From positions 1,152,001 to 1,216,000 of the forward strand of contig OZ220089.1 in NCBI GenBank assembly GCA_964291625.2: a DNA stretch of 64,000 nucleotides, read 5' to 3'. This DNA comes from Candidatus Latescibacterota bacterium. GTDB lineage: Bacteria > Latescibacterota > UBA2968 > UBA8231. Each line of letters begins with the position of its first letter. Position 1 is the stretch's first letter. The notes beneath the pieces are model-generated. The model ran no database searches, was not told the DNA's origin, and saw nothing but the letters and a program-made list of their open reading frames with translations. The translations under genes were made by a program, and so were the position numbers. This document shows positions 2,897-50,345 of the stretch, piece by piece.

Positions 2897-3700
2897 TTAC
2901 ACCCGCCCAGGGTAGGAGCGGCCCCGCACCTGCCTGAAGGGCGGCTGCTTCGGCGCGTCGGTGACGGAGTCGTCCTGCCACGACGTGGCCCGCATGTAGT
3001 GCACGGCGTAGCCGCGCCGGCGGCGGCCGGAGGTGTTGGCGCCGCTGCGGTGGACGGTGAGGCTGTGGTGGAAGCTGACGCTGCCCGGCCTCAGCGGCAC
3101 CGCCACCGGCGTCCACGGCTCCCGGCCGAAGTCCTCGTGGAAGGTCCGCAGGCGCGGGCGCTGCATCATCCCCCAGCGGTGGGTCCCGGGCACGAACTCC
3201 AGGCAGCCGTTGGCGTGGTCGGCCTCGTCGATCGCCGTCCACGACGAGACCAGGTCCATGGGGAAGATGTCGCGCCACGAGGCCGAGTCCTGGTGCCAGG
3301 GCTGCTCGGCGCCGACCTCGGGGGGCTTCATGAAGAGCTGGTCGCCGTAGAGCTTGATGTCGTCGGTGCCGAGGAGGTCGGCGATGATGTCGACGACCTT
3401 CGGGTTGCTCGCGTGGTCCCACATGACGTCGTCCTGCACGGCGACCTGGTGGAGCTTGCGCACGGCCAGCACCCGGTCCCCGACCTCCGCCTCCCCTTCC
3501 CGGTAGATGCGCTCGAGCTGGACGCCCCCGGAGACGTGCTCCGCCTCCCCCGCGGCGATCTGGTCGGCGCGCGCCGACACGGCCTCCACCTCCGGCGGCG
3601 ACAGCAGATCCTCCACCACCAGGAAGCCGTTCACCACGAAACGGGTGACCTGGTCCTGCGTCAGCGCCCTGAGAGTCCTTCCTTCCGCCGTGATCGTCAT
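2897..3700 (-). CDS. Phytanoyl-CoA dioxygenase (PhyH) family Fe(II)/2OG oxygenase
   Basis: WHQD, NGCLEFVPGTH and HRSGANTSGRRRRG motifs. Confidence 0.9.
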   Translation of the reverse strand: MTITAEGRTLRALTQDQVTRFVVNGFLVVEDLLSPPEVEAVSARADQIAAGEAEHVSGGVQLERIYREGEAEVGDRVLAVRKLHQVAVQDDVMWDHASNPKVVDIIADLLGTDDIKLYGDQLFMKPPEVGAEQPWHQDSASWRDIFPMDLVSSWTAIDEADHANGCLEFVPGTHRWGMMQRPRLRTFHEDFGREPWTPVAVPLRPGSVSFHHSLTVHRSGANTSGRRRRGYAVHYMRATSWQDDSVTDAPKQPPFRQVRGRSYPGRV

Positions 3701-3843
3701 GTCGTCTCCATGGTGGCGGCCTGGCGGCCGTCTTCGGGTTGCCGGCGCACTAAGAAGGGCCGGTACGGAGTCGCGTCAAATGGGCGGCCTGGTCCGGGAA
3801 TCCGTCGGTCCCCGACTTCGGGGACCATCTGAGGATCGCGCCC

Positions 3844-4260
3844 GTGGCGAGATCTGACCTCGAGTACTGGACCCGGCGCTCCAGCGCCGGCACGGTCGCC
3901 GCCAACCTTCGTTGGGCCTGGAGCCTCGCCTGGGCCCATGGGAGAGCCGCGGTCCTCACCCTGATCGGCATCCAGCTCCTGCTCGGCCTCCAGCCGGCGC
4001 TGCTCATCCACGTGACGCGGAACCTCGTCGACACGGTGGTCGACGCCGCGGGCGGCGGCCCGGCTGACTTCGGGGATGCCCTCCCCTGGCTGGCCGCCTT
4101 CGGCCTGCTCCCCCGGCTGGGCTCGGCGCGCCTGTGCGACCGGATCCTGGTGCTGAAGGAGGGCCGCCTGGTCGAGGACGGCACCCACGAAGAGCTGGTC
4201 TCCCGGGGCGGGGAGTACGCGCGCATGTGGGATCTGCAGGCGGGGTGGTATGGTCCGTAG
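3844..4260 (+). pseudogene. Internally deleted ABC exporter (N-terminal TM segment fused in frame to extreme C-terminus)
   Basis: First about 90 aa resemble an ABC-B TMD start. They join directly to RLGSARLCDRILVLKEGRLVEDGTHEELV, the NBD tail after the H-loop. Walker A/B and signature motifs are absent. Confidence 0.8.
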
Positions 4261-40917: not shown

Positions 40918-43353
40918 TCAACGGATCAACAGGATTCGTCGGGAGTCCGCTCCATGGGTCCAGGAGAGACGCACCAGGAACACCCCCGAGCCCAGGGATC
41001 TCCCGTCCAGAGAAACGTTATAGGTCCCGGGTTCCTGGAATTCGTCTACCAGTGTTGCCACTCGTTGACCCACTAGGTTGTATACCGACAAGGTTACTGG
41101 TCCGACTGCCCCCAGCCGATAGGATATCTGTGTTTGGGTGTTAAACGGGTTGGGGTAGTTCGGCAAGAGAACAGTTCGATCTGTCAATCCCGGCCCCGTC
41201 AACTCAACAGCCGTAGAGGTAGATAGAAAGGGCGACATATCCCACACGATTGTCTCCGCTCCATAGATACTGGAGGAGGAAACCAAGACACTCCCATCGC
41301 GTGAGAGTCTCAGGTCACTTATCCTCTCCAAATGGCTCCCAACCGAATCTACCGCGGTTCCGGAGCTTGTATCCCACACCATGATGTTCTTGGAGAACAG
41401 ACTCCTCGTGCCAATCATCAGCGATTGGTCAGGGGTAAAAGCAACCGGAATGTGCCAGTTGCACTCCTGGATAGTGGACAATGGCTCGAGGGTGTAAGCA
41501 TCCCACAGTCTTAGGACGTCCCCAAAGGCAACGCTGATCAATATGTCTCCATTGGGGGACAACTTTACGCAATGGACCTGTTCGGAATGCTCCCAAACAG
41601 CAATCCGGCTATTGTCCTGCGGATCCCAGACTTGGGTTGTGTTTTCAACCGCACAGGCCAGGAGACCGGTAGGCAGATACGTCAGACTCCGCGAATGCGT
41701 TTCTACCGGCCCCACACTCCCTGATTTGGTTCCGGTGGGGACATCCCACAAGACAATGGAACGGTCTTTGTTGGTAGTAGTCGCAAGGGTCTCCCCATCG
41801 GGAGAAAAATCCAGAGAGTAGACTGTCCCGTTAAGAGTCATGGATGATCTTGGTTGGGTGGCCCACACATCCCACAGAACCGCTCTTCTGCTGTTGTGAG
41901 AAACGGTCGCCAGGGTCTCTCCATCGGGAGAAAACACCAGTCTCCTGATCGCCGTGTTGTCTCCACCGGTCAGTTTTGCCTTCATGGTGCCGTCGGGACT
42001 CAGAAGTCCCACACTCCCTGCGGGAGAGGCACCAACATACACCGTAGTTCCGTCAGAAGACCAGTGAATGGGAGGATGGTATTTTATGTTAGGGTCTGCG
42101 GTAGTCAGCAACTCTCCCGTCTCCACATCCCAAAACTCAAGAACCGATCCCCCGTCAATAGTGGTCACCGTCCCTCCGTCCGGCGAGATTCCGAGCCCGT
42201 ACAAGTTGCGCGAGTAACCGCCCAAACCAACCTGCCTTTCATAGGTTTGGGCGTCCAGGATATGTACTGCTTTGCCGTCTGTAGACCCAACGGCCAGCTG
42301 ATTCTCGTAGGAGTCGAAAAACACATCTCCGAGAATGGAATCTTCAACGGGGACGGTAGCCCGAAGATCCCCAGTAGACACATCCCATACCCTCATAACA
42401 TTCCGACTCCCGGCCGCCAGCAGTCCGCCTGGAAGAAACTCCAGATCCGTAGTCCAAGGTTCGTTGTTGAGGATGAATCTTGGAGTTGAGGAAAGGGACA
42501 CCATATCCCATACGAAAACTTGATCTCCCCATACCCCCCCGCTGACAAGGACTGTTCCGTCGGGGGAAAACACCACAGTCCTGATCTCTCGGCTGTGTCC
42601 ACTAAGAGCAACTAACTGATTCTCCGTCTCTACGTCCCATATACGGATAACCGGACGGGCGTCGTCCCAATCGTGGGTTGCCAAGAGGGTTCCATCGGGG
42701 GAAAGGGCGACATTAGCAGCGTATCCGCTGCTGGGCTCGAAAGTGCGCAGTTCTTTCCCAGTGGATGCGTCCCACAAGCGCGCCTGAGCAGAACCGGTAA
42801 CCAGTGTTAGTCCATCCCGGGAAAACTCAATGTCCGAAACCGAGGTTCGGAGGACCAGCAACTCCTCTCCAGTCAGTGGATTCCACACCCGAGCGGTGGA
42901 TCCCCTGCCTCCGGTAGCCAGGAGCTTTCCGTCGGGGGAAAAGGCTATAGGACCATGCCCACTCAGGATCAACTTTCTCTCACCATTGGTTGCGTCCCAT
43001 AGGCTGATGGTTCCCTCTCCCGCGCTTGTTGCCAGGAGTCTCTTCCCGGGAGCAAAAACCATCCGAGGGCCATAAAAGGGGGAGTGGGTCTTCAGCAAGG
43101 CTGATGCTTCATAGGTTTCTGTGTCGTATAGCCAAATCCCCGCTCCGGTTGAAACCGCCAGTCGGGAACCATCATGGGAATAGGATGCGTTGTACAGGCT
43201 TCCTTGGCCCAGGTAATTGATCGCTCCGTTGGGCAATCCGAAGTCCTGGGCAAAGCAAGCAGATGCGCCCAAGAACACAAGGAACACCAATGCCCGTCGC
43301 CTTGGTTCAACCGCACCCGGCAATCGCGGTAGTGTTCTTTCCATTTTCCCCAT
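40918..43353 (-). CDS. Secreted WD40-repeat protein with C-terminal T9SS-CTD/FlgD-like domain
   Basis: Many FSPDG..LAT..LWD repeats; tail TAVE..NYPNPFN..YNLVGQRVATLV..SGVFLVRL; visibly lower GC than flanks. Confidence 0.9.
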   Translation of the reverse strand: MGKMERTLPRLPGAVEPRRRALVFLVFLGASACFAQDFGLPNGAINYLGQGSLYNASYSHDGSRLAVSTGAGIWLYDTETYEASALLKTHSPFYGPRMVFAPGKRLLATSAGEGTISLWDATNGERKLILSGHGPIAFSPDGKLLATGGRGSTARVWNPLTGEELLVLRTSVSDIEFSRDGLTLVTGSAQARLWDASTGKELRTFEPSSGYAANVALSPDGTLLATHDWDDARPVIRIWDVETENQLVALSGHSREIRTVVFSPDGTVLVSGGVWGDQVFVWDMVSLSSTPRFILNNEPWTTDLEFLPGGLLAAGSRNVMRVWDVSTGDLRATVPVEDSILGDVFFDSYENQLAVGSTDGKAVHILDAQTYERQVGLGGYSRNLYGLGISPDGGTVTTIDGGSVLEFWDVETGELLTTADPNIKYHPPIHWSSDGTTVYVGASPAGSVGLLSPDGTMKAKLTGGDNTAIRRLVFSPDGETLATVSHNSRRAVLWDVWATQPRSSMTLNGTVYSLDFSPDGETLATTTNKDRSIVLWDVPTGTKSGSVGPVETHSRSLTYLPTGLLACAVENTTQVWDPQDNSRIAVWEHSEQVHCVKLSPNGDILISVAFGDVLRLWDAYTLEPLSTIQECNWHIPVAFTPDQSLMIGTRSLFSKNIMVWDTSSGTAVDSVGSHLERISDLRLSRDGSVLVSSSSIYGAETIVWDMSPFLSTSTAVELTGPGLTDRTVLLPNYPNPFNTQTQISYRLGAVGPVTLSVYNLVGQRVATLVDEFQEPGTYNVSLDGRSLGSGVFLVRLSWTHGADSRRILLIR

Positions 43354-43502: not shown

Positions 43503-44960
43503 TCAGGCGGCGCCGGCGAGCGCCTCCCGCCCGAACCGCTCGACCGCCTCCAGGGTCTCGCGCACGTCGTCCCAGGTGGTGGTGTGGTTGAGGATGCACA
43601 GCCGCAGGGCGAAGGTCCCGTGAAGAAGGGTCGATGAGAAGAAGGCGCGGTCTTCCCAGAAGGCGCGGGCGAGCACCGTCTTGTTGATCTCCTCGAGCGC
43701 TCCTTCGCCGAGGTCGGTCTCGGCGGGCCGGATGCGGAAGCAGACGATCCCCAGGGACGCGGGATTGACGATCTCCAGGTCCGGACTCGCCCGGACGTAG
43801 CTCTCGGCCCGGGAGGCAAGCTCCATCCCCCGGGAGACGGCGCTGCGGAAGGCGGCCATCCCGAAGGTCTGGATCGACACCCAGACCTTCAGGGCTCGGA
43901 CCGAGCGGCTCAGTTGCAGGCCGCGGTCCGAGAAGTTCGGGTGATTGGCGCCCCATATGGTGTCCTGCAGGACATCGTGCTTGACCGCGAAAGCCCGCTC
44001 CAGGGCGCGCAGGTCTTTCACCATCAGGAGGCCCGCCTCGTAGGGCTGGAAGAACCACTTGTGGGCGTCCAGCCCGATCGAATCGGCGCGCTCGATCCCG
44101 CGCAGCAGCCCCCGGCCCTCCTCCGTGACGATCGCGAAGCCCCCGTACGCGGCGTCCACGTGCAGCCAGATCCCTTCGGCCTCGCAGAAGTCGGCCATCT
44201 CTTCGAGGGGGTCGATCGACCCGGTGCTGGCCGCCCCGGCGTTGGCGCATGCGGCGATGGGGTTGAATCCGGCCGCGCGGTCGTCGGCGACGGCCCGCGC
44301 GAGGGCCGCCACGTCCAGGCGGAATCGCCGGTCGGTGGGAACCATGCGGATGCACTCCGGGCGGACGCCGACGATCCTCGCCGCGCGGACGTGGGCGCTG
44401 TGGCTCTGGTCGCTCATGTACACGGTCGCGCGCTCGGGGTGGCCGGCCTCTTCCCGGGCCGCGACGAAGGCGTCGAGGCTGGCCGCCGAGCCCCCGCTCG
44501 TGAACAGCCCGCCCGCGGTCTCCGGGTAGCCGAGCCAGCCCCGGACCCAGTCGAGGACGACCAGCTCGAGCTGACTCGGACCGCTCGAGGTCAGCCAGGT
44601 GCACTGGTTGACCTGGTACCCGGCGACCATGAAGTCGGCCAGCACTCCCGGCCAGGTGGTCGACGAGGGGATGAACCCGAAGAACCGGGGGTGATCGATC
44701 CGCGCCGCCACCGGCAGGATCTGTCGGGCGGCGCGCTCCAGGACCTCGGCCGCGGGACGGCCGTTCTCCGGCGGGTCCTCCGCCAGTTGGGCCTCCAGCT
44801 CCTGCCGGAAGTCCCCCTCCCAGGCGCTCTCCCGGGGCAGGCTCTCGATCCGCTCCACGATGAGCCGGGCCGTCTTTTCCGCCAGTTCGAGCATCTCCTC
44901 GGGAGGCATGCTCAGACCGTCGCGCGGGATGCTCTCGTCTTGTTTTGAGTCGTCTGGCAA
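43503..44960 (-). CDS. Group II PLP-dependent (aromatic-L-amino-acid-type) decarboxylase
   Basis: HPRFFGFIP, TSGGS, SDQSHS, WLHVDAAYGG, DAHKW and LGIVCFR. Confidence 0.9.
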   Translation of the reverse strand: MPDDSKQDESIPRDGLSMPPEEMLELAEKTARLIVERIESLPRESAWEGDFRQELEAQLAEDPPENGRPAAEVLERAARQILPVAARIDHPRFFGFIPSSTTWPGVLADFMVAGYQVNQCTWLTSSGPSQLELVVLDWVRGWLGYPETAGGLFTSGGSAASLDAFVAAREEAGHPERATVYMSDQSHSAHVRAARIVGVRPECIRMVPTDRRFRLDVAALARAVADDRAAGFNPIAACANAGAASTGSIDPLEEMADFCEAEGIWLHVDAAYGGFAIVTEEGRGLLRGIERADSIGLDAHKWFFQPYEAGLLMVKDLRALERAFAVKHDVLQDTIWGANHPNFSDRGLQLSRSVRALKVWVSIQTFGMAAFRSAVSRGMELASRAESYVRASPDLEIVNPASLGIVCFRIRPAETDLGEGALEEINKTVLARAFWEDRAFFSSTLLHGTFALRLCILNHTTTWDDVRETLEAVERFGREALAGAA

Positions 44961-45056
44961 CTGGTGCTCCTTGTTGGTCCGCCGCGCAATGGCGGAGTGA
45001 ACGGAAACAAGGTAGAGAATCCGGGGACATGGAGGCGACAGCGCGGGGCCCCGGGG

Positions 45057-45084
45057 TTGACAGGCCCCCGGCCTCCTCTATACT
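45057..45084 (+). promoter_or_regulatory. Sigma70-type promoter of padR-arsM
   Basis: TTGACA (45057-45062), 16-nt spacer, TATACT (45079-45084). Confidence 0.75.
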
Positions 45085-45101
45085 AAACGCCGTTTAGTAT
45101 A
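45079..45101. promoter_or_regulatory. Perfect palindromic operator overlapping the -10 box
   Basis: TATACTAAACG-C-CGTTTAGTATA (11-1-11). Confidence 0.85.
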
Positions 45102-45126
45102 CGCCATTGGACCTTGAGGAGAGAGC

Positions 45127-45501
45127 ATGTCCGAGATGAACGGCGAGCGGTACTGGGAGAGCCTGGTGAAGAAGGGCCTCTGCCGGTTCCAGCTCCTCGC
45201 CCAACTGGCCAAGGGTCCGCTCCACGGCTATGCCGTCAACCAGGCCATCAAGGAAGCGTGCCAGGGGTGCTGCGAACCGACGGAGGCGATGGTGTACTCG
45301 ACCCTGAGGGAGCTCCGGGACCACGGCTACGTGGAGAGCCGCACGGAGAAACACCAGGGAAGACGCCGGAGCATCTGCTGGCTGACGCCGGCAGGGGAAG
45401 AGGCGTTCCAGTCGGCCGCCAGGGTCTGGAAGCGGATGTTGCCGACAGTGCAGGACTGCGTTGCCCAGGCAGGTGCAAAGGAGGCCGGATATGGCTGCTG
45501 A
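45127..45501 (+). CDS. PadR family transcriptional regulator, Cys-rich
   Basis: PLHGYAV, VYSTLREL..GYV and RR..WLTPAG; contains CQGCC. Confidence 0.88.
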   Translation: MSEMNGERYWESLVKKGLCRFQLLAQLAKGPLHGYAVNQAIKEACQGCCEPTEAMVYSTLRELRDHGYVESRTEKHQGRRRSICWLTPAGEEAFQSAARVWKRMLPTVQDCVAQAGAKEAGYGC

Positions 45502-46306
45502 GCAGGACCACATCAAGGAACAGGTCAGGGCGCGGTACGGGGCCCACGCCCGGCGGGTCGTGGCGAAGGACGACACGGGCGGCTGCTGCGAGCCGGCCCC
45601 CGCCGGCTGCGACTCGGCCGCCTCATCCTGCTGTGAGCCCGGGGATCTGGCCCACGCCATGCGGCTCTACACCGAGGGCGAGATGGAGGGCCTGCCCACC
45701 GAAGCGCTGGCCGCCTCGGCCGGATGCGGCAACCCGACGGCCCTGGCGGGACTTCGCGCCGGGGAGAGGGTGCTCGACCTCGGTTCCGGCGGCGGTCTCG
45801 ACTGCTTCCTGGCGGCGCGGCAGGTCGGCGAGACCGGGCGGGTCACGGGGCTGGACATGACCCCGGAGATGCTGGAGCTGGCCCGCAAGAACCAGACCGC
45901 CCACGGCTTCACCAACGTCGAGTTCGTCCAGGGTCAGATGGAGTCGATGCCCCTGCCCGGCGATTCCTTCGACGTCATCATCTCCAACTGCGTGGTCTGC
46001 CTGTCGCCCGACAAGGACGCCGTCTTCAGCGAGAGCTTCCGGGTCCTGGCCCCCGGCGGACGCATCCACCTGTCCGACGTGCTCGCCCTCACGCCCGGAC
46101 GCCCGTCATCCGGCGCCGACGCCGAGGACTGGGTGGCCTGCGCCGCGGGAGCCGAGCACCACGAGGTCTACGTCGACCGCCTGCGCCGCGCCGGTTTCGA
46201 GGAGATCGCCATCACCGGCGAAGGAATCGAGTTCCGGGACGAGTCGGAGAAGGACGCGTACCCCGGTACGGCCAGCTTCAAAGTGACGGCGCGCAAGCCG
46301 GCTTGA
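45491..46306 (+). CDS. arsM: Arsenite S-adenosylmethionine methyltransferase
   Basis: VRARYG, N-terminal CC pairs, [28 protein letters not shown] and WVACAAGA. Confidence 0.88.
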
Positions 46307-46309
46307 GGT

Positions 46310-46876
46310 CTACGTCCCACCCTTGACCTGCCCCCAGGACTCGATCGTGACCTTCGTGGAAACGGATCCCGGATAGAAGCCGGAGGCCAGGATGACATCC
46401 CCATGGGGCGTGGACCAGGGGATGGCGTAGCTCACCTTGGGCGAGCCGGTCTCCTCGTCCCCCTCTACCGCCGGATCGTCGAAGAGATACTCGACGAACC
46501 CACCCCCCTCGGCCGCCGCCTCGATCAGCTCCCGGGTGAACCTGACACCGTTGGAATCCTCGAGGTCGATCAGGTTCCGGTCCTCGAGGTCCGGGTTCCC
46601 TCCGTGAAGGATGACGGTGCCATCCTCAGCCAGGACGAAGAGGTAGATCGATCCCTGCTTCCAGGCTTCATCGGCCCGGAATCCCTCCATGACGGCCAGG
46701 CACTCTGCAGCGCTGGTGGATTTGCCCCCGTACGCCGCCGCCGACAGCACGAACTCCTTCAAGCTCTCCCGGTCCACCACGTCACCGGCCTTGATCTCCG
46801 TGTGATGCGCCAGCGCGGGCTGCGCGGCCGGCATCAGAGCGGTCAGCGTCAACAGGATCCCTCCAAGACGCTTCAT
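46310..46876 (-). CDS. Secreted stand-alone single Cache domain protein, copy 1
   Basis: Signal peptide; WKQGSIYLFV, GTVILHG, DSNGV, GGGFVEY and KVSY; tail ESWGQVK. Confidence 0.8.
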   Translation of the reverse strand: MKRLGGILLTLTALMPAAQPALAHHTEIKAGDVVDRESLKEFVLSAAAYGGKSTSAAECLAVMEGFRADEAWKQGSIYLFVLAEDGTVILHGGNPDLEDRNLIDLEDSNGVRFTRELIEAAAEGGGFVEYLFDDPAVEGDEETGSPKVSYAIPWSTPHGDVILASGFYPGSVSTKVTIESWGQVKGGT

Positions 46877-46942
46877 GACGTTTCTCCTTCTGCAAGCGGA
46901 TACGTCCGATCCTGCCGTCTCTCGGCAGATGGCCGTTCTCTC

Positions 46943-46957
46943 GCAGAATCCGTGCCA
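46943..46957 (-). promoter_or_regulatory. Putative sigma54 (-24/-12) promoter
   Basis: Minus strand reads TGGCACGGATTCTGC (GG-N10-GC), about 66 nt upstream of the Cache gene start. Confidence 0.65.
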
Positions 46958-46988
46958 ACTCCTTGCGGTAATGGGCCAATACCCTGCG

Positions 46989-47112
46989 TATCAAGGAGTT
47001 GCGGTAGAATGACGAACTTCGAAAGGGCTCCTGAAGGTATGGCGAAGTGTGACAGTCAACCGCCCGGGAGACCCGTTCTCCTGTCCGTCAAAGAGGCCGC
47101 AACTCGTTGATT
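46989..47112. promoter_or_regulatory. Two IHF-consensus sites
   Basis: TATCAAGGAGTTG (46989-47001, +) and AATCAACGAGTTG (47100-47112, -) both match WATCAANNNNTTR. Confidence 0.5.
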
Positions 47113-47471
47113 TCCAGGCAGTTGGAGGAAGAGGCCGAGACCGCCGCAGTGATTTGTATCAGCTTGCACCACGTGAACATCCCTCCGCTCGCAACCGGGA
47201 CCGACAGCCGCGGGGACGCGGGTTGGGTGGCGCTCCGCCCGTGGAGAGGCCGGCCATCCCCTGCTTCTCGCGGCGCCGCTCCCGGTTGTGCAGCCCGGGG
47301 TCCATGATCTCGTGACCGACCGAGCCCCGGGGCTGGCGCATCCTCTCACCCCTTGACGCGGTCTCGTCCTCGTGCAGGACGAGGCGCTTGCCGCAGACCT
47401 CCCTGCATTCGTCCTTAGGGCGCGTCCGCAGGATGACCTCCCCCTTCTTCATGCCGAGAGCGAGTTGCTCG

Positions 47472-48077
47472 ATGGACAGGACCGCCCGCACCGCCCGCCC
47501 CATCCACCCCCTGCTGAGCCAGCGCTGGAGCCCCCGCGCCTTTGCCGACCGCCCCGTGGAGCCGGCCAAGCTCGTCGCTCTCCTCGAAGCGGCCCGCTGG
47601 GCACCTTCCTCCTACAACGAACAGCCCTGGCACTTCATCGTCGCTCCCAAAGCCGAGACCGAGTCGTTCGACCGACTCCTGGGCTGCCTCTCGCGCGGCA
47701 ATGCCAGCTGGGCCGGCAAGGCCCCGGTGCTCATGCTGGCGGTGGCCCAGCTGCTTGACGAAGATGGCGATCCCAACCGCCACGCCTTCTACGACGTGGG
47801 CCAGGCCGTGGCGCAAATGGCCCTCCAGGCTCTCGATCTTGGATTGTACATGCACCAGATGGCCGGCTTCGACGTGGAGAAGGCACAGCAGGTCTTTGCG
47901 GTCCCGGCGCAGTTCGAGCCCGCCGCGGCGATCGCCCTGGGCTACCTCGGTGACCCGGCCGGTCTGCCCGAACGCTACCGGGAGGGAGAGGCCCGGCCCC
48001 GCAGCCGCAAGCCCTTGGCCGAGTTCGTCTTCGCCGGCCAGTGGGGGCAGGCCTCACCGCTCGCGGTCGAGGAGTGA
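47472..48077 (+). CDS. Nitroreductase family protein
   Basis: RWSPRAF, WAPSSYNEQPW, YDVGQA, HQMAGFD and RSRKPL. Confidence 0.92.
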   Translation: MDRTARTARPIHPLLSQRWSPRAFADRPVEPAKLVALLEAARWAPSSYNEQPWHFIVAPKAETESFDRLLGCLSRGNASWAGKAPVLMLAVAQLLDEDGDPNRHAFYDVGQAVAQMALQALDLGLYMHQMAGFDVEKAQQVFAVPAQFEPAAAIALGYLGDPAGLPERYREGEARPRSRKPLAEFVFAGQWGQASPLAVEE

Positions 48078-48158: not shown

Positions 48159-48728
48159 CTACAGTCGGCCCTTCAACTGTCCCCAGGACTCTCCCGTCAC
48201 CGCCGTGGCCGGGGCTTCCGGATAGAAGCCGGCGCCCACGGTGACATCCTGGCCGAAGGCGGAGAAGGGGACGACGTAGCTCACCTTGGGCGAGCCGGTC
48301 TCCTCGTCCCCCTCGATCGCGGGATTGTCGAACAGATACTCGACGAAGCCGCCCCCGTCGGCCGCCGCGGCGAGGAGCTCCTGGGTGTACTTGACGCCAT
48401 TGGAGTCCTCCGAGTCATAGATGTTCCGGCCCTCGAGATCCTGGTTCGCACCGTGAAAGAAGAGGGTGCCATCCGGAAGCAGGACGAAGACGTAGATCGC
48501 CCCCTGCCTCCAGCGCCCCTCGACCCGGAACTCCTGCAGGACACCCTGGTACTCGGCCAGGGTCGCGGCCTGCTCGACGTAGGCAACCGCCGCGTGGACG
48601 AAGTCCCTCAGGGTTTCCCGGTCCACCACGTCGGCCGCCGTGATCTCCGAGTCCTGGGCGGAGGCGGGATGGGCGGCAGTACAGAGGGCGGTCAGGGCTA
48701 TGATGGTTGCTGATGTCAGACGTTTCAT
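48159..48728 (-). CDS. Secreted stand-alone single Cache domain protein, copy 2
   Basis: MKRLTS signal peptide; paralog of 46310-46876 sharing a 40-bp identical block (46426-46465 = 48275-48314); tail ESWGQLK. Confidence 0.8.
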   Translation of the reverse strand: MKRLTSATIIALTALCTAAHPASAQDSEITAADVVDRETLRDFVHAAVAYVEQAATLAEYQGVLQEFRVEGRWRQGAIYVFVLLPDGTLFFHGANQDLEGRNIYDSEDSNGVKYTQELLAAAADGGGFVEYLFDNPAIEGDEETGSPKVSYVVPFSAFGQDVTVGAGFYPEAPATAVTGESWGQLKGRL

Positions 48729-48840
48729 GGTCTTCTCCCCTCTTGCCTGAGATGCTCTGAGAATGAGAGCGGCCGGGGGATTTCTGGCAAGGCCGGAGGG
48801 CTGCCGGCATCCCATCCAGCCCCGAGGCCACAACATGGCC

Positions 48841-48869
48841 TTGACGGCATATGCTTCCGAGGACATATT
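48841..48869 (+). promoter_or_regulatory. Putative sigma70 promoter of the XRE/defence operon
   Basis: TTGACG, 17-nt spacer, CATATT; palindrome GCATATGC in the spacer. Confidence 0.5.
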
Positions 48870-48899
48870 CGCCCGGCCGCCAACCGAGGGAGGTGCGCG

Positions 48900-49250
48900 A
48901 TGCCAGTGAAGGTGGAAGAGAAGATCGCGCGGCTCGATCCCGCCCGTCGCCGCAAGGTCGACGATCGAGCGGCCGAGCTGCTTGCCGAGGAGATGAGCCT
49001 GCGTGAGCTGCGCAAGGCCCGGCGGCTCACCCAGGCTCACCTCGCGAGCGAGCTGGGTATCTCGCAGGACGGCATCTCCCGGCTCGAGCAGCGAAGCGAC
49101 CTGCTGCTCTCGACGTTGCGCAAGACGGTGGAGGCCATGGGCGGCAGCCTGTCGCTCATCGCCAGGTTTCCCGACCGTCCGCCGGTCGAGTTGTTCAGCC
49201 CCAACGGACGCCCTCCGTCGGGGACCTCCAGGGCCAAGCCCGATGCCTGA
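48900..49250 (+). CDS. XRE family HTH protein (HigA-like antitoxin type), no toxin adjacent
   Basis: LRELRKARRLTQ..LGISQDGISRLEQRSDLLLSTLR..AMGGSL..ARFPD. Confidence 0.88.
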   Translation: MPVKVEEKIARLDPARRRKVDDRAAELLAEEMSLRELRKARRLTQAHLASELGISQDGISRLEQRSDLLLSTLRKTVEAMGGSLSLIARFPDRPPVELFSPNGRPPSGTSRAKPDA

Positions 49251-49274
49251 GGACCGGGAACTGAGCGCAAGAGC

Positions 49275-50345
49275 GTGAAGACAGTCGCATTCTTCAACAG
49301 CAGAGGAGGAGTGGGCACCACTTCCCTCGTCTACCATCTGGCGTGGATGTTCGCCGAGCAGGGCCGCAGGATCATCGCGGCCGACCTGGACCCCCAGGCC
49401 AGCCTGAGCGGGATGTTCCTGACCGAAGAGGTGATGGAGAAGATGTCGGGCGATCCCGCCAGGAAGACGATCAACGACGAGATCGAGCCGCTCTTCGACG
49501 GCAGCGGAGACATCGCCTCCGAGCCCCATGTCGAAGAGATCGACGAGAAGGTCGGGCTGCTCATCGGCGACCTCGGCCTGTCCAGGCAAGAGGACGATCT
49601 ATGGAATCAATGGTCCCTCTGCCTAGACGGCGATTCACGAGCCCTCCGGGTTACCACGGCGTTCGCCCGACTCATCGACCGCGCCGGTACAGGGTTCGAG
49701 GCCGACCTCGCTCTTGTGGACGTGGGGCCCAGCCTTGGCGCCCTGAACCGGGCTTCCCTGGTGGCGTGCGACCACGTGATCATCCCGCTGGCGCCCGATC
49801 TGTTCTCCCTGCAGGGACTGCGTAACGTCGGCCTGGCCATAGCGAAGTGGCGGGAAGCCTGGTCCGAGCGGCGCGCTGATGAGGCGGAAGACTTGGAATT
49901 GGGTCTGCCACAAGGATCGATGCAGCCGGCGGGGTACATCATCATGGGGCAATCGGTCCGGCTCAATCGGCCGAGGCTATTCGGGCGCTGGACCGAAGAG
50001 ATCCCCGGCGAGTATCGGCGATCCGTCATGCAGGCGGAAGACTGCAGCTCTGACTCCGACTCAGCCGACCCCCACCTCCTCGCCCACCTGAAGGAATACC
50101 ACGCGCTGATGCCGCTCGCCGAGGAGGCGAGCAAGCCCATTTTCAAGCTGAAGCCGGCCGACGGAGCCCTCGGCGGACACCAGAGGGCGGTGCAAGAGTG
50201 CTACCGTGACCTCAGGGACTTGGCTCGGAAGATCGAGGAGCGAATCGGTCTGGGCGGGGACACCGGTGCCCCCCCGCCGTCCTTCGGGGGAATGAGCCGC
50301 CCGCCACACACAGTGACCTGCCTACGCAACACGCCATCTGTCTGA
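49275..50345 (+). CDS. ParA/MinD-like ATPase with degenerate Walker A
   Basis: FFNSRGGVGTTS (canonical KGGVGKT), DLDPQAS, DVGPSLG and PLAPDLFSLQGL. Confidence 0.85.
   Translation: MKTVAFFNSRGGVGTTSLVYHLAWMFAEQGRRIIAADLDPQASLSGMFLTEEVMEKMSGDPARKTINDEIEPLFDGSGDIASEPHVEEIDEKVGLLIGDLGLSRQEDDLWNQWSLCLDGDSRALRVTTAFARLIDRAGTGFEADLALVDVGPSLGALNRASLVACDHVIIPLAPDLFSLQGLRNVGLAIAKWREAWSERRADEAEDLELGLPQGSMQPAGYIIMGQSVRLNRPRLFGRWTEEIPGEYRRSVMQAEDCSSDSDSADPHLLAHLKEYHALMPLAEEASKPIFKLKPADGALGGHQRAVQECYRDLRDLARKIEERIGLGGDTGAPPPSFGGMSRPPHTVTCLRNTPSV

Follow-up and report, generated by a model that had tools for sequence, protein, structure and literature searches.

A putative arsenic-responsive PadR repressor coupled to arsM in a Latescibacterota genome and in environmental relatives

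The padR and arsM genes in the 64-kb stretch of Latescibacterota DNA analysed here (the window) are best explained as a self-contained, autoregulated cassette of two genes for arsenic methylation, whose repressor would be released when trivalent arsenicals bind to thiols in a loop of the protein; we give this reading a probability of about 0.7. PadR would probably turn arsM on when arsenic appears. Judged by sequence comparison, the same pair is found in more than 100 environmental bacteria. Our argument draws on the anatomy of the locus and the fold of the regulator, on the strict linkage of the two genes, on the conservation of a cysteine triad and of an operator, and on the uniqueness of that operator in the genome; from these we infer that a dimer binds the operator, that arsenicals bind the triad and that derepression follows.

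Anatomy of the padR-arsM locus

Table 1. Features of the padR-arsM locus, with positions in the window
Feature	Position	Strand	Remarks
-35 hexamer TTGACA	45057..45062	+	promoter search; TTGAC lies at most 30 nt upstream of the operator in 42/48 family loci
-10 hexamer TATACT	45079..45084	+	doubles as the outer end of the left operator arm; NATACT starts the left arm in 41/48 loci
Operator, perfect palindrome TATACTAAACG-C-CGTTTAGTATA	45079..45101	.	predicted; family core ATACTAAAC-N3-GTTTAGTAT
Shine-Dalgarno-like GAGGAGAG	45116..45123	+	ends 3 nt ahead of the padR start codon, its GGAG core 5 nt ahead; read from sequence
padR	45127..45501	+	LmrR-like PadR; predicted to repress its own promoter and to sense arsenicals
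CQGCC codons (C45-Q-G-C48-C49)	45259..45273	+	in the loop that joins helix 2 to the recognition helix; putative thiolate site
arsM ribosome-binding site GGAGG	45480..45484	+	within the end of padR; read from sequence
arsM	45491..46306	+	271-aa As(III) S-adenosylmethionine methyltransferase; ATG at 45491; overlaps padR by 11 nt

The TTGACA and TATACT hexamers are separated by a 16-nt spacer, match 11 of 12 consensus positions and form the sole promoter-like site between 44500 and 46900, against a mean of 0.2 in shuffled sequence. As the original prediction stated, the -10 box lies inside a perfect palindrome of 23 bp (Table 1), the 11-nt arms of which (45079-45089 and 45091-45101) are 100% complementary across a 1-nt gap. 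Among perfect inverted repeats whose arms reach 11 nt or more and whose gap does not exceed 3 nt, it is the only one in the 64-kb window, and 40 first-order Markov simulations produced a mean of 0.05 such repeats and a maximum of one. With up to three mismatches allowed, the 21-bp operator core occurs once in the 5.9-Mb genome, and a reversed control pattern gave 0 matches.

The padR reading frame encodes a single-domain PadR of 124 aa, which matches the Pfam PadR family (PF03551) over residues 23-95 at 59.8 bits (cut-off 27; E 2.6e-16). The ArsR-type domain HTH_5 (PF01022) was absent from the protein at E<=0.01 in the Pfam search, where the other matches were to HTH_34 and, weakly and under cut-off, to Replic_Relax (E 0.0019). 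Single-domain PadR proteins form a subfamily of about 110-130 aa, with a winged helix-turn-helix, one long C-terminal helix and no second domain, and both its model and its best PDB matches place the 124-aa protein in this LmrR-like group. The seven cysteines previously read from the sequence, CQGCC beside the helix-turn-helix among them, are present in the translation at positions 19, 45, 48, 49, 84, 111 and 124. One protein of this PadR type was found in the genome.

The overlap of padR with arsM is likewise as first described. ArsM narrowly passes the NCBIfam arsenite methyltransferase model NF008823 (270.5 bits, cut-off 263) and is the only one of 12 matches in the genome to exceed that cut-off. 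Its best solved relative is the arsenite methyltransferase 5evj (E 6.2e-37), with the cysteines of which C79 (GCGNP), C167 (ISNCV) and C217 (ACAAGA) align, so the enzyme does keep its conserved cysteines. Acr3 (TIGR00832) and ArsB (PF02040) have no match in the genome, which is 95% complete, so there is no wider ars context.

An AlphaFold2 model of PadR (mean pLDDT 84, pTM 0.71) consists of helices at residues 7-28 and 34-44, a loop at 45-52, the recognition helix at 53-65, the two strands of the wing at 69-76 and 79-86, and a long helix at 88-121. The triad C45, C48 and C49 falls in the loop between helix 34-44 and the recognition helix; this is the least confident structured part of the model, with mean pLDDT values of 69 and 81 for residues 41-50 and 51-60. 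The closest solved structures are LmrR (PDB 3f8b, 3f8c), Rv3488 (5zhc) and the Listeria protein 6abt, single-domain PadR proteins being matched at profile E-values of 1e-11 to 1e-10 and in Foldseek with probability 1.00 and TM scores of 0.6-0.7. From the alignment with LmrR and the model, the triad would thus lie at the entry to the recognition helix. LmrR of Lactococcus lactis has the same order of helices and wing, and in the profile alignment W101 coincides with the conserved tryptophan of its helix 4, but it has SNGEMEL where the window's family has CQGCCEP. LmrR senses drugs and regulates an ABC exporter, and the tryptophan in question is presumably its drug-stacking Trp96.

Contigs nearly identical to the locus are present in sponge and marine metagenome runs. 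One 953-nt contig from a sponge metatranscriptome library covers positions 45010-45962 with 17 differences, and so runs from the promoter through the whole padR gene and across the junction, 470 nt into arsM; it is compatible with co-transcription of the two genes, although the library may contain DNA and its contigs do not show transcript ends. Gaps in contig cover over other parts of the stretch in the RNA run carry no weight as evidence. Elsewhere in the window, two similar secreted Cache-domain proteins (46310-46876 and 48159-49589, both on the minus strand) flank a nitroreductase gene (47388-48077), and a WD40 beta-propeller protein of 811 aa whose N-terminus resembles a signal (40918-43353, minus strand) is unrelated to padR-arsM.

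Linkage, conservation and spread of the pair

A protein search returned 197 relatives of the window's PadR, the best 120 of which are 63-99% identical to it, and a scan of one genome per species gave 54 loci, 47 at 62-84% identity and seven at 27-34%. arsM stands directly downstream of padR, on the same strand, in all 47 close loci and in none of the seven at 27-34% identity. The close loci come from records titled Dehalococcoidia, Chloroflexota/Chloroflexi or SAR202 (46/47), with one from Gemmatimonadaceae. Other genes beside the pair at these loci (mandelate racemase-like, PIG-L, GNAT, NIPSNAP and alcohol dehydrogenase genes) are unrelated to arsenic, and the unit therefore comprises two genes.

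At greater distance, HMMER run against 1.84 billion representatives brought up 888 proteins with E<=1e-3, of which 73 had E<=1e-10. Relatives at 30-45% identity have an N-terminal YW helix in common, most retain a vicinal CC pair in the loop between helices 2 and 3 (consensus GCCxPT), and many have a further CC in the C-terminal tail. A metagenome scan with 12 distant relatives recovered 80 loci at 36-49% identity, and arsM follows padR immediately in 72 of them; six of the remaining eight have less than 400 nt downstream, and two end just past an intervening PadR-like ORF. The original prediction proposed a search for CxxCC-type PadR genes beside ars genes, and such linkage is borne out by both sets of loci and, in remoter relatives, by ArsP-type permease genes. 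In five loci (L021, L025, L042, L043 and L122) the two genes are fused in frame into one ORF of 373-410 aa, and the differing linkers suggest several independent losses of the padR stop codon. The padR match begins at 4001 in L021, L025, L042 and L043.

Some loci carry additional genes or altered copies. A HicA toxin/HicB antitoxin pair (Pfam HicA_toxin, E 6e-07; HicB_lk_antitox, E 4e-07 to 4e-05) lies between padR and arsM at about 4420-4830 in L003 and L016, and L015, L017 and L018 have the same padR-arsM gap of about 490 nt. In one distant subfamily a truncated PadR paralogue of 72 aa, at 4405-4623 of L113, stands between the two genes; it has the recognition helix, the wing and the start of helix 4, is without the N-terminal helices and the CC loop, and may be an anti-repressor or a heterodimer partner. 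Similar second PadR-like matches occur in L071, L106, L108, L109, L111, L112, L114-L118, L120, L121 and L148. L113 also has a 54-aa ORF with cysteines (CxxC ... CP) at 3835-3999, which ends 1 nt before the padR start codon and has no Pfam match. A second SAM methyltransferase, 31-35% identical to residues 86-197 or 86-214 of ArsM, is encoded 0.3-2 kb downstream of arsM in L076, L077, L083, L084, L085, L090, L091 and L098, which are of a distant subfamily. The arsM match of L026 (4371-5122) is in two pieces, residues 1-102 and 121-270, and may reflect a deletion or frameshift.

Residue counts separate the family-wide cysteines from the rest. In an alignment of 31 close relatives, C19, C45, G47, C48, C49, P51, C84 and W101 are invariant. 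Across 117 distinct arsM-linked PadR proteins, 48 close and 69 distant, C45 is found in all 48 close sequences and in 65 of the 69 distant ones (it is missing from four), and C48 and C49 are each found in 48/48 and 68/69; W101 is retained in at least 95% of the 117. The remaining positions differ between close and distant sequences: C19 (100% and 12%), C84 (100% and 81%), C71 (44% and 100%) and C111 (88% and 0%). What marks the family is therefore C-x-G-C-C, a triad conserved in 100% of close and 94-99% of distant homologues, and not the full set of seven cysteines that was emphasised at the outset; C19, C84 and C111 each belong to particular subfamilies, and C124 shows no conservation.

The operator is conserved along with the triad, as was anticipated. 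Every one of the 47 close loci has a match to at least 14 of 20 palindrome positions upstream of padR and none elsewhere in its roughly 8 kb, and no match was present in the seven distant loci (27-34% identity) of the species scan. The family consensus reads TTGAC, then after about 17-20 nt tATACTaAAc-N3-gTTTAGTAT, and in 34 of 48 loci a third half-site in direct orientation (ttgAGTAt) follows about 5 nt downstream of the palindrome; in the window this third half-site has decayed and the palindrome is perfect. Distant subfamilies have other palindromes of the same 9-3-9 geometry, for example ATATCTAGC-N3-GCTAGGTAT, ATATATCGA-N3-TCGATATAT and ATACCTTGA-N3-aCAAGGTAT.

Among 61 related genomes this PadR is confined to two, that of the window and another from its genus. 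Rarity among these relatives, set beside its frequency in Dehalococcoidia records, makes horizontal acquisition the simplest reading; the cassette therefore appears to have been acquired laterally, and the donors were probably of Dehalococcoidia/SAR202 type. In the congeneric carrier (L001) the cassette adjoins the same decarboxylase gene as in the window, and in a comparison over 44000-47500 the DNA identity is 88% for padR-arsM and 94.6% for the decarboxylase gene. The order there is arsM, nitroreductase, Cache.

Mechanism and inducer

The mechanism we propose would begin, with arsenic absent, with a PadR dimer seated on the 21-23-bp palindrome; as the palindrome spans the -10 box and the likely transcription start, such a dimer would block RNA polymerase. 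Trivalent arsenicals, As(III) being the likeliest and MAs(III) or Sb(III) possible, would bind the thiols of C45, C48 and C49. Binding in the loop would reshape the helix-turn-helix, and the repressor would leave the DNA. A bicistronic mRNA would then be made, and ArsM, translationally coupled to PadR, would methylate As(III). Points that count against this mechanism are the narrow margin of the ArsM score, the lack of a wider ars context, the four distant arsM-linked proteins missing C45, the lower confidence of the loop in the model and an operator unlike the one published for PadRars (below).

An assessment blind to gene context came from evenly drawn genomes, searched with a profile of distant relatives at E<=1e-22. 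Matches occurred in 6 of 401 genomes from Chloroflexota, 3 of 401 from Desulfobacterota and 5 of 168 from the window's phylum. Eleven of them have the CC loop, and each of these is followed directly by arsM (five: G000, G002, G061, G404 and G308) or by an ArsP_1 permease gene (six: L072-L074 and L156-L158; Pfam ArsP_1, E 1e-52 to 1e-61); the three matches without the loop adjoin neither gene. L161-L163 (82-85 bits, from the window's phylum) were considered as family members and rejected, being generic PadR proteins without the CC loop beside unrelated membrane proteins. The ArsP-linked PadR gene of L072 has as neighbours a VKOR-family gene (1921-2367) and an ArsR-family gene (3071-3340), whose product matches HTH_5 at E 1e-09 and contains an ECVCHL motif.

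None of the six ArsP-linked PadR proteins of the genome samples has C45. A seventh is known from an annotated record of a Cupriavidus basilensis plasmid, where padR is again followed by an ArsP_1 permease gene, and in four of these seven the whole protein has just two cysteines. A Roseomonas mucosa plasmid also encodes a relative, 41% identical to the window's PadR over 93 residues; downstream of its gene come one for a protein resembling flavin monooxygenases and one for an MFS transporter.

The identity of the inducer is where the closest alternative arises. The repressor could sense the product of the pathway, methylarsenite or another trivalent organoarsenical, and arsM would then serve to convert MAs(III) further, into methylated species of lower toxicity. 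There is a precedent in the ArarsRMC operon, for which As(III) and MAs(III) both act as inducers, and ArsM is able to detoxify MAs(III) as well (PMC11868830). The relatives that have the CC pair alone stand upstream of ArsP-type genes, and the available part of PMC6205960 describes ArsP of Campylobacter jejuni as an exporter of methylarsenite and trivalent roxarsone, not of arsenite. W101 may in addition line a pocket for an organic group; its conservation and its alignment with the LmrR tryptophan make an organic ligand pocket possible, which counts against the mechanism proposed above. However, three loop thiols are present in 94-100% of arsM-linked PadR proteins, the number associated with As(III), and two suffice for MAs(III): the As(III)-responsive ArsR proteins use three cysteines (C32, C34 and C37, in the DNA-binding domain, in R773 ArsR), and the MAs(III)-selective SpArsR uses two (PMC11868830). 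We therefore regard a methylated inducer as unlikely.

Two further explanations take the cysteines away from arsenicals altogether. They might form a disulfide switch for redox or electrophile sensing, the methyltransferase being induced by oxidative or thiol stress; vicinal and CxxC cysteines form disulfides easily, and peroxide is the signal for certain winged-helix regulators whose cysteines are clustered, for instance RexT of the ArsR-SmtB family. We consider this improbable in view of the 11 context-blind CC-loop matches, every one of which is linked to arsM or an ArsP-type permease gene, and of the neighbours, among which no thioredoxin or peroxidase partner recurs. It is equally hard to credit that the cysteines are ligands of Zn, Cd or an Fe-S cluster in a structural or regulatory role, with another effector or none in a constitutive autoregulator: Rv3488, a PadR of the same fold class that is reportedly linked to cadmium tolerance, is among the best structural matches, and the subfamily-specific cysteines C19, C71 and C84 could complete a four-ligand site, but gene linkage points to arsenic, and four of the seven ArsP-linked proteins, with two cysteines in all, could not build a Zn or Fe-S site from a single subunit.

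Relation to known metalloid sensors

Release of the PadR by trivalent arsenicals, which remains our preferred reading, has a published counterpart. PadRars of Azospirillum halopraeferens Au 4 is a PadR-family repressor responsive to As(III) and Sb(III), according to the available part of its record (Zhang, Wu, Tang, Chen, Rosen and Zhao 2022, Environ Microbiol 24:5139, doi 10.1111/1462-2920.16147). Repressors of the PadR family that respond to metalloids are thus already in print, and the claim of a new repressor type does not stand; the comparative tests of cysteines, linkage and palindrome favour the proposal of a trithiol arsenic sensor on a PadR scaffold, which is thereby supported in part, and what it loses to PadRars is the novelty of the idea. 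The PadRars study reportedly implicated paired cysteines. So far as its available account goes, PadRars is of the same kind as the window's protein, a PadR-family repressor with an inverted repeat that controls a resistance operon for trivalent metalloids, and by comparison the linkage of the window's padR to arsM (47/47 and 72/80) and the operator over its -10 box place it with that kind. The two differ in that the window's padR would regulate arsM alone, and in their operators, that of PadRars being given in a citing sentence as CCTTGA-N11-TCAAGG and that of the window's family being the core listed in Table 1.

Half-sites of the ArsP-linked relative on the Cupriavidus plasmid (ATACCTTGA/CAAGGTAT) contain the PadRars hexamers as quoted in that sentence, a hint from sequence of a possible link between this relative and PadRars. 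In the Roseomonas locus the PadRars operator pattern has just two matches with two mismatches, neither of them upstream of padR (0.34 expected by chance), a result that carries no weight, and no Azospirillum name appears among the best 120 of 700 relatives of the Roseomonas PadR.

The ArsR/SmtB repressors (R773 ArsR, AfArsR, CgArsR, ArArsR and SpArsR) offer the functional parallel. Like them, the window's protein is probably a homodimeric winged-helix autorepressor that heads an ars operon and is released through As(III) and three thiolates, and its triad is placed comparably to the R773 ArsR site, in the DNA-binding domain. It is not a member of that group, however, since it is a PadR, of another family and fold with an LmrR-like long C-terminal helix. 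Operons of two genes, arsR and arsM, are known, as recorded in the available part of PMC6205960.

The literature that we searched did not contain the arsM-coupled CxGCC subfamily, its operator, its spread through Dehalococcoidia/SAR202 and sediments, the fusions, or the split in thiol number between arsM-linked and ArsP-linked forms, and PadR goes unmentioned in 300,000 characters of a 2024 review of bacterial metal sensors. The window's padR-arsM is best filed as a widespread new arsM-coupled form of a sensor type published for one characterised protein.

It is a tentative suggestion, which we think has the odds against it, that the CC-loop PadR proteins as a whole constitute a large class of arsenical sensors alongside ArsR, for the most part overlooked, with the ligand perhaps determined by how many thiols the loop contains. 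If true, partner gene and ligand would go together: arsM and As(III) for the CxGCC form with its three thiols, the MAs(III) exporter ArsP and methylarsenite for the GCC-only form. The natural PadR-ArsM fusions would then be enzyme-repressors in one polypeptide. The ArsP-linked PadR of the Cupriavidus plasmid has a third loop cysteine, which argues against such a thiol-number rule.

Methylation by marine and sediment bacteria shapes the speciation of arsenic, and SAR202 is an abundant marine group. To our knowledge, the control of arsenic methylation has been described almost entirely through ArsR. At the loci examined here, arsM of SAR202 and Dehalococcoidia metagenome-assembled genomes would instead, on sequence grounds, be under a PadR-type switch with a three-cysteine loop. 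Such regulators are at present annotated simply as 'PadR family transcriptional regulator', and the signature YW...G-CC-xPT allows them to be annotated easily. They would provide a second, structurally distinct scaffold for arsenic biosensors, and the three-thiol, two-thiol and fused forms would make up a natural series bearing on thiol number and selectivity between As(III) and MAs(III).
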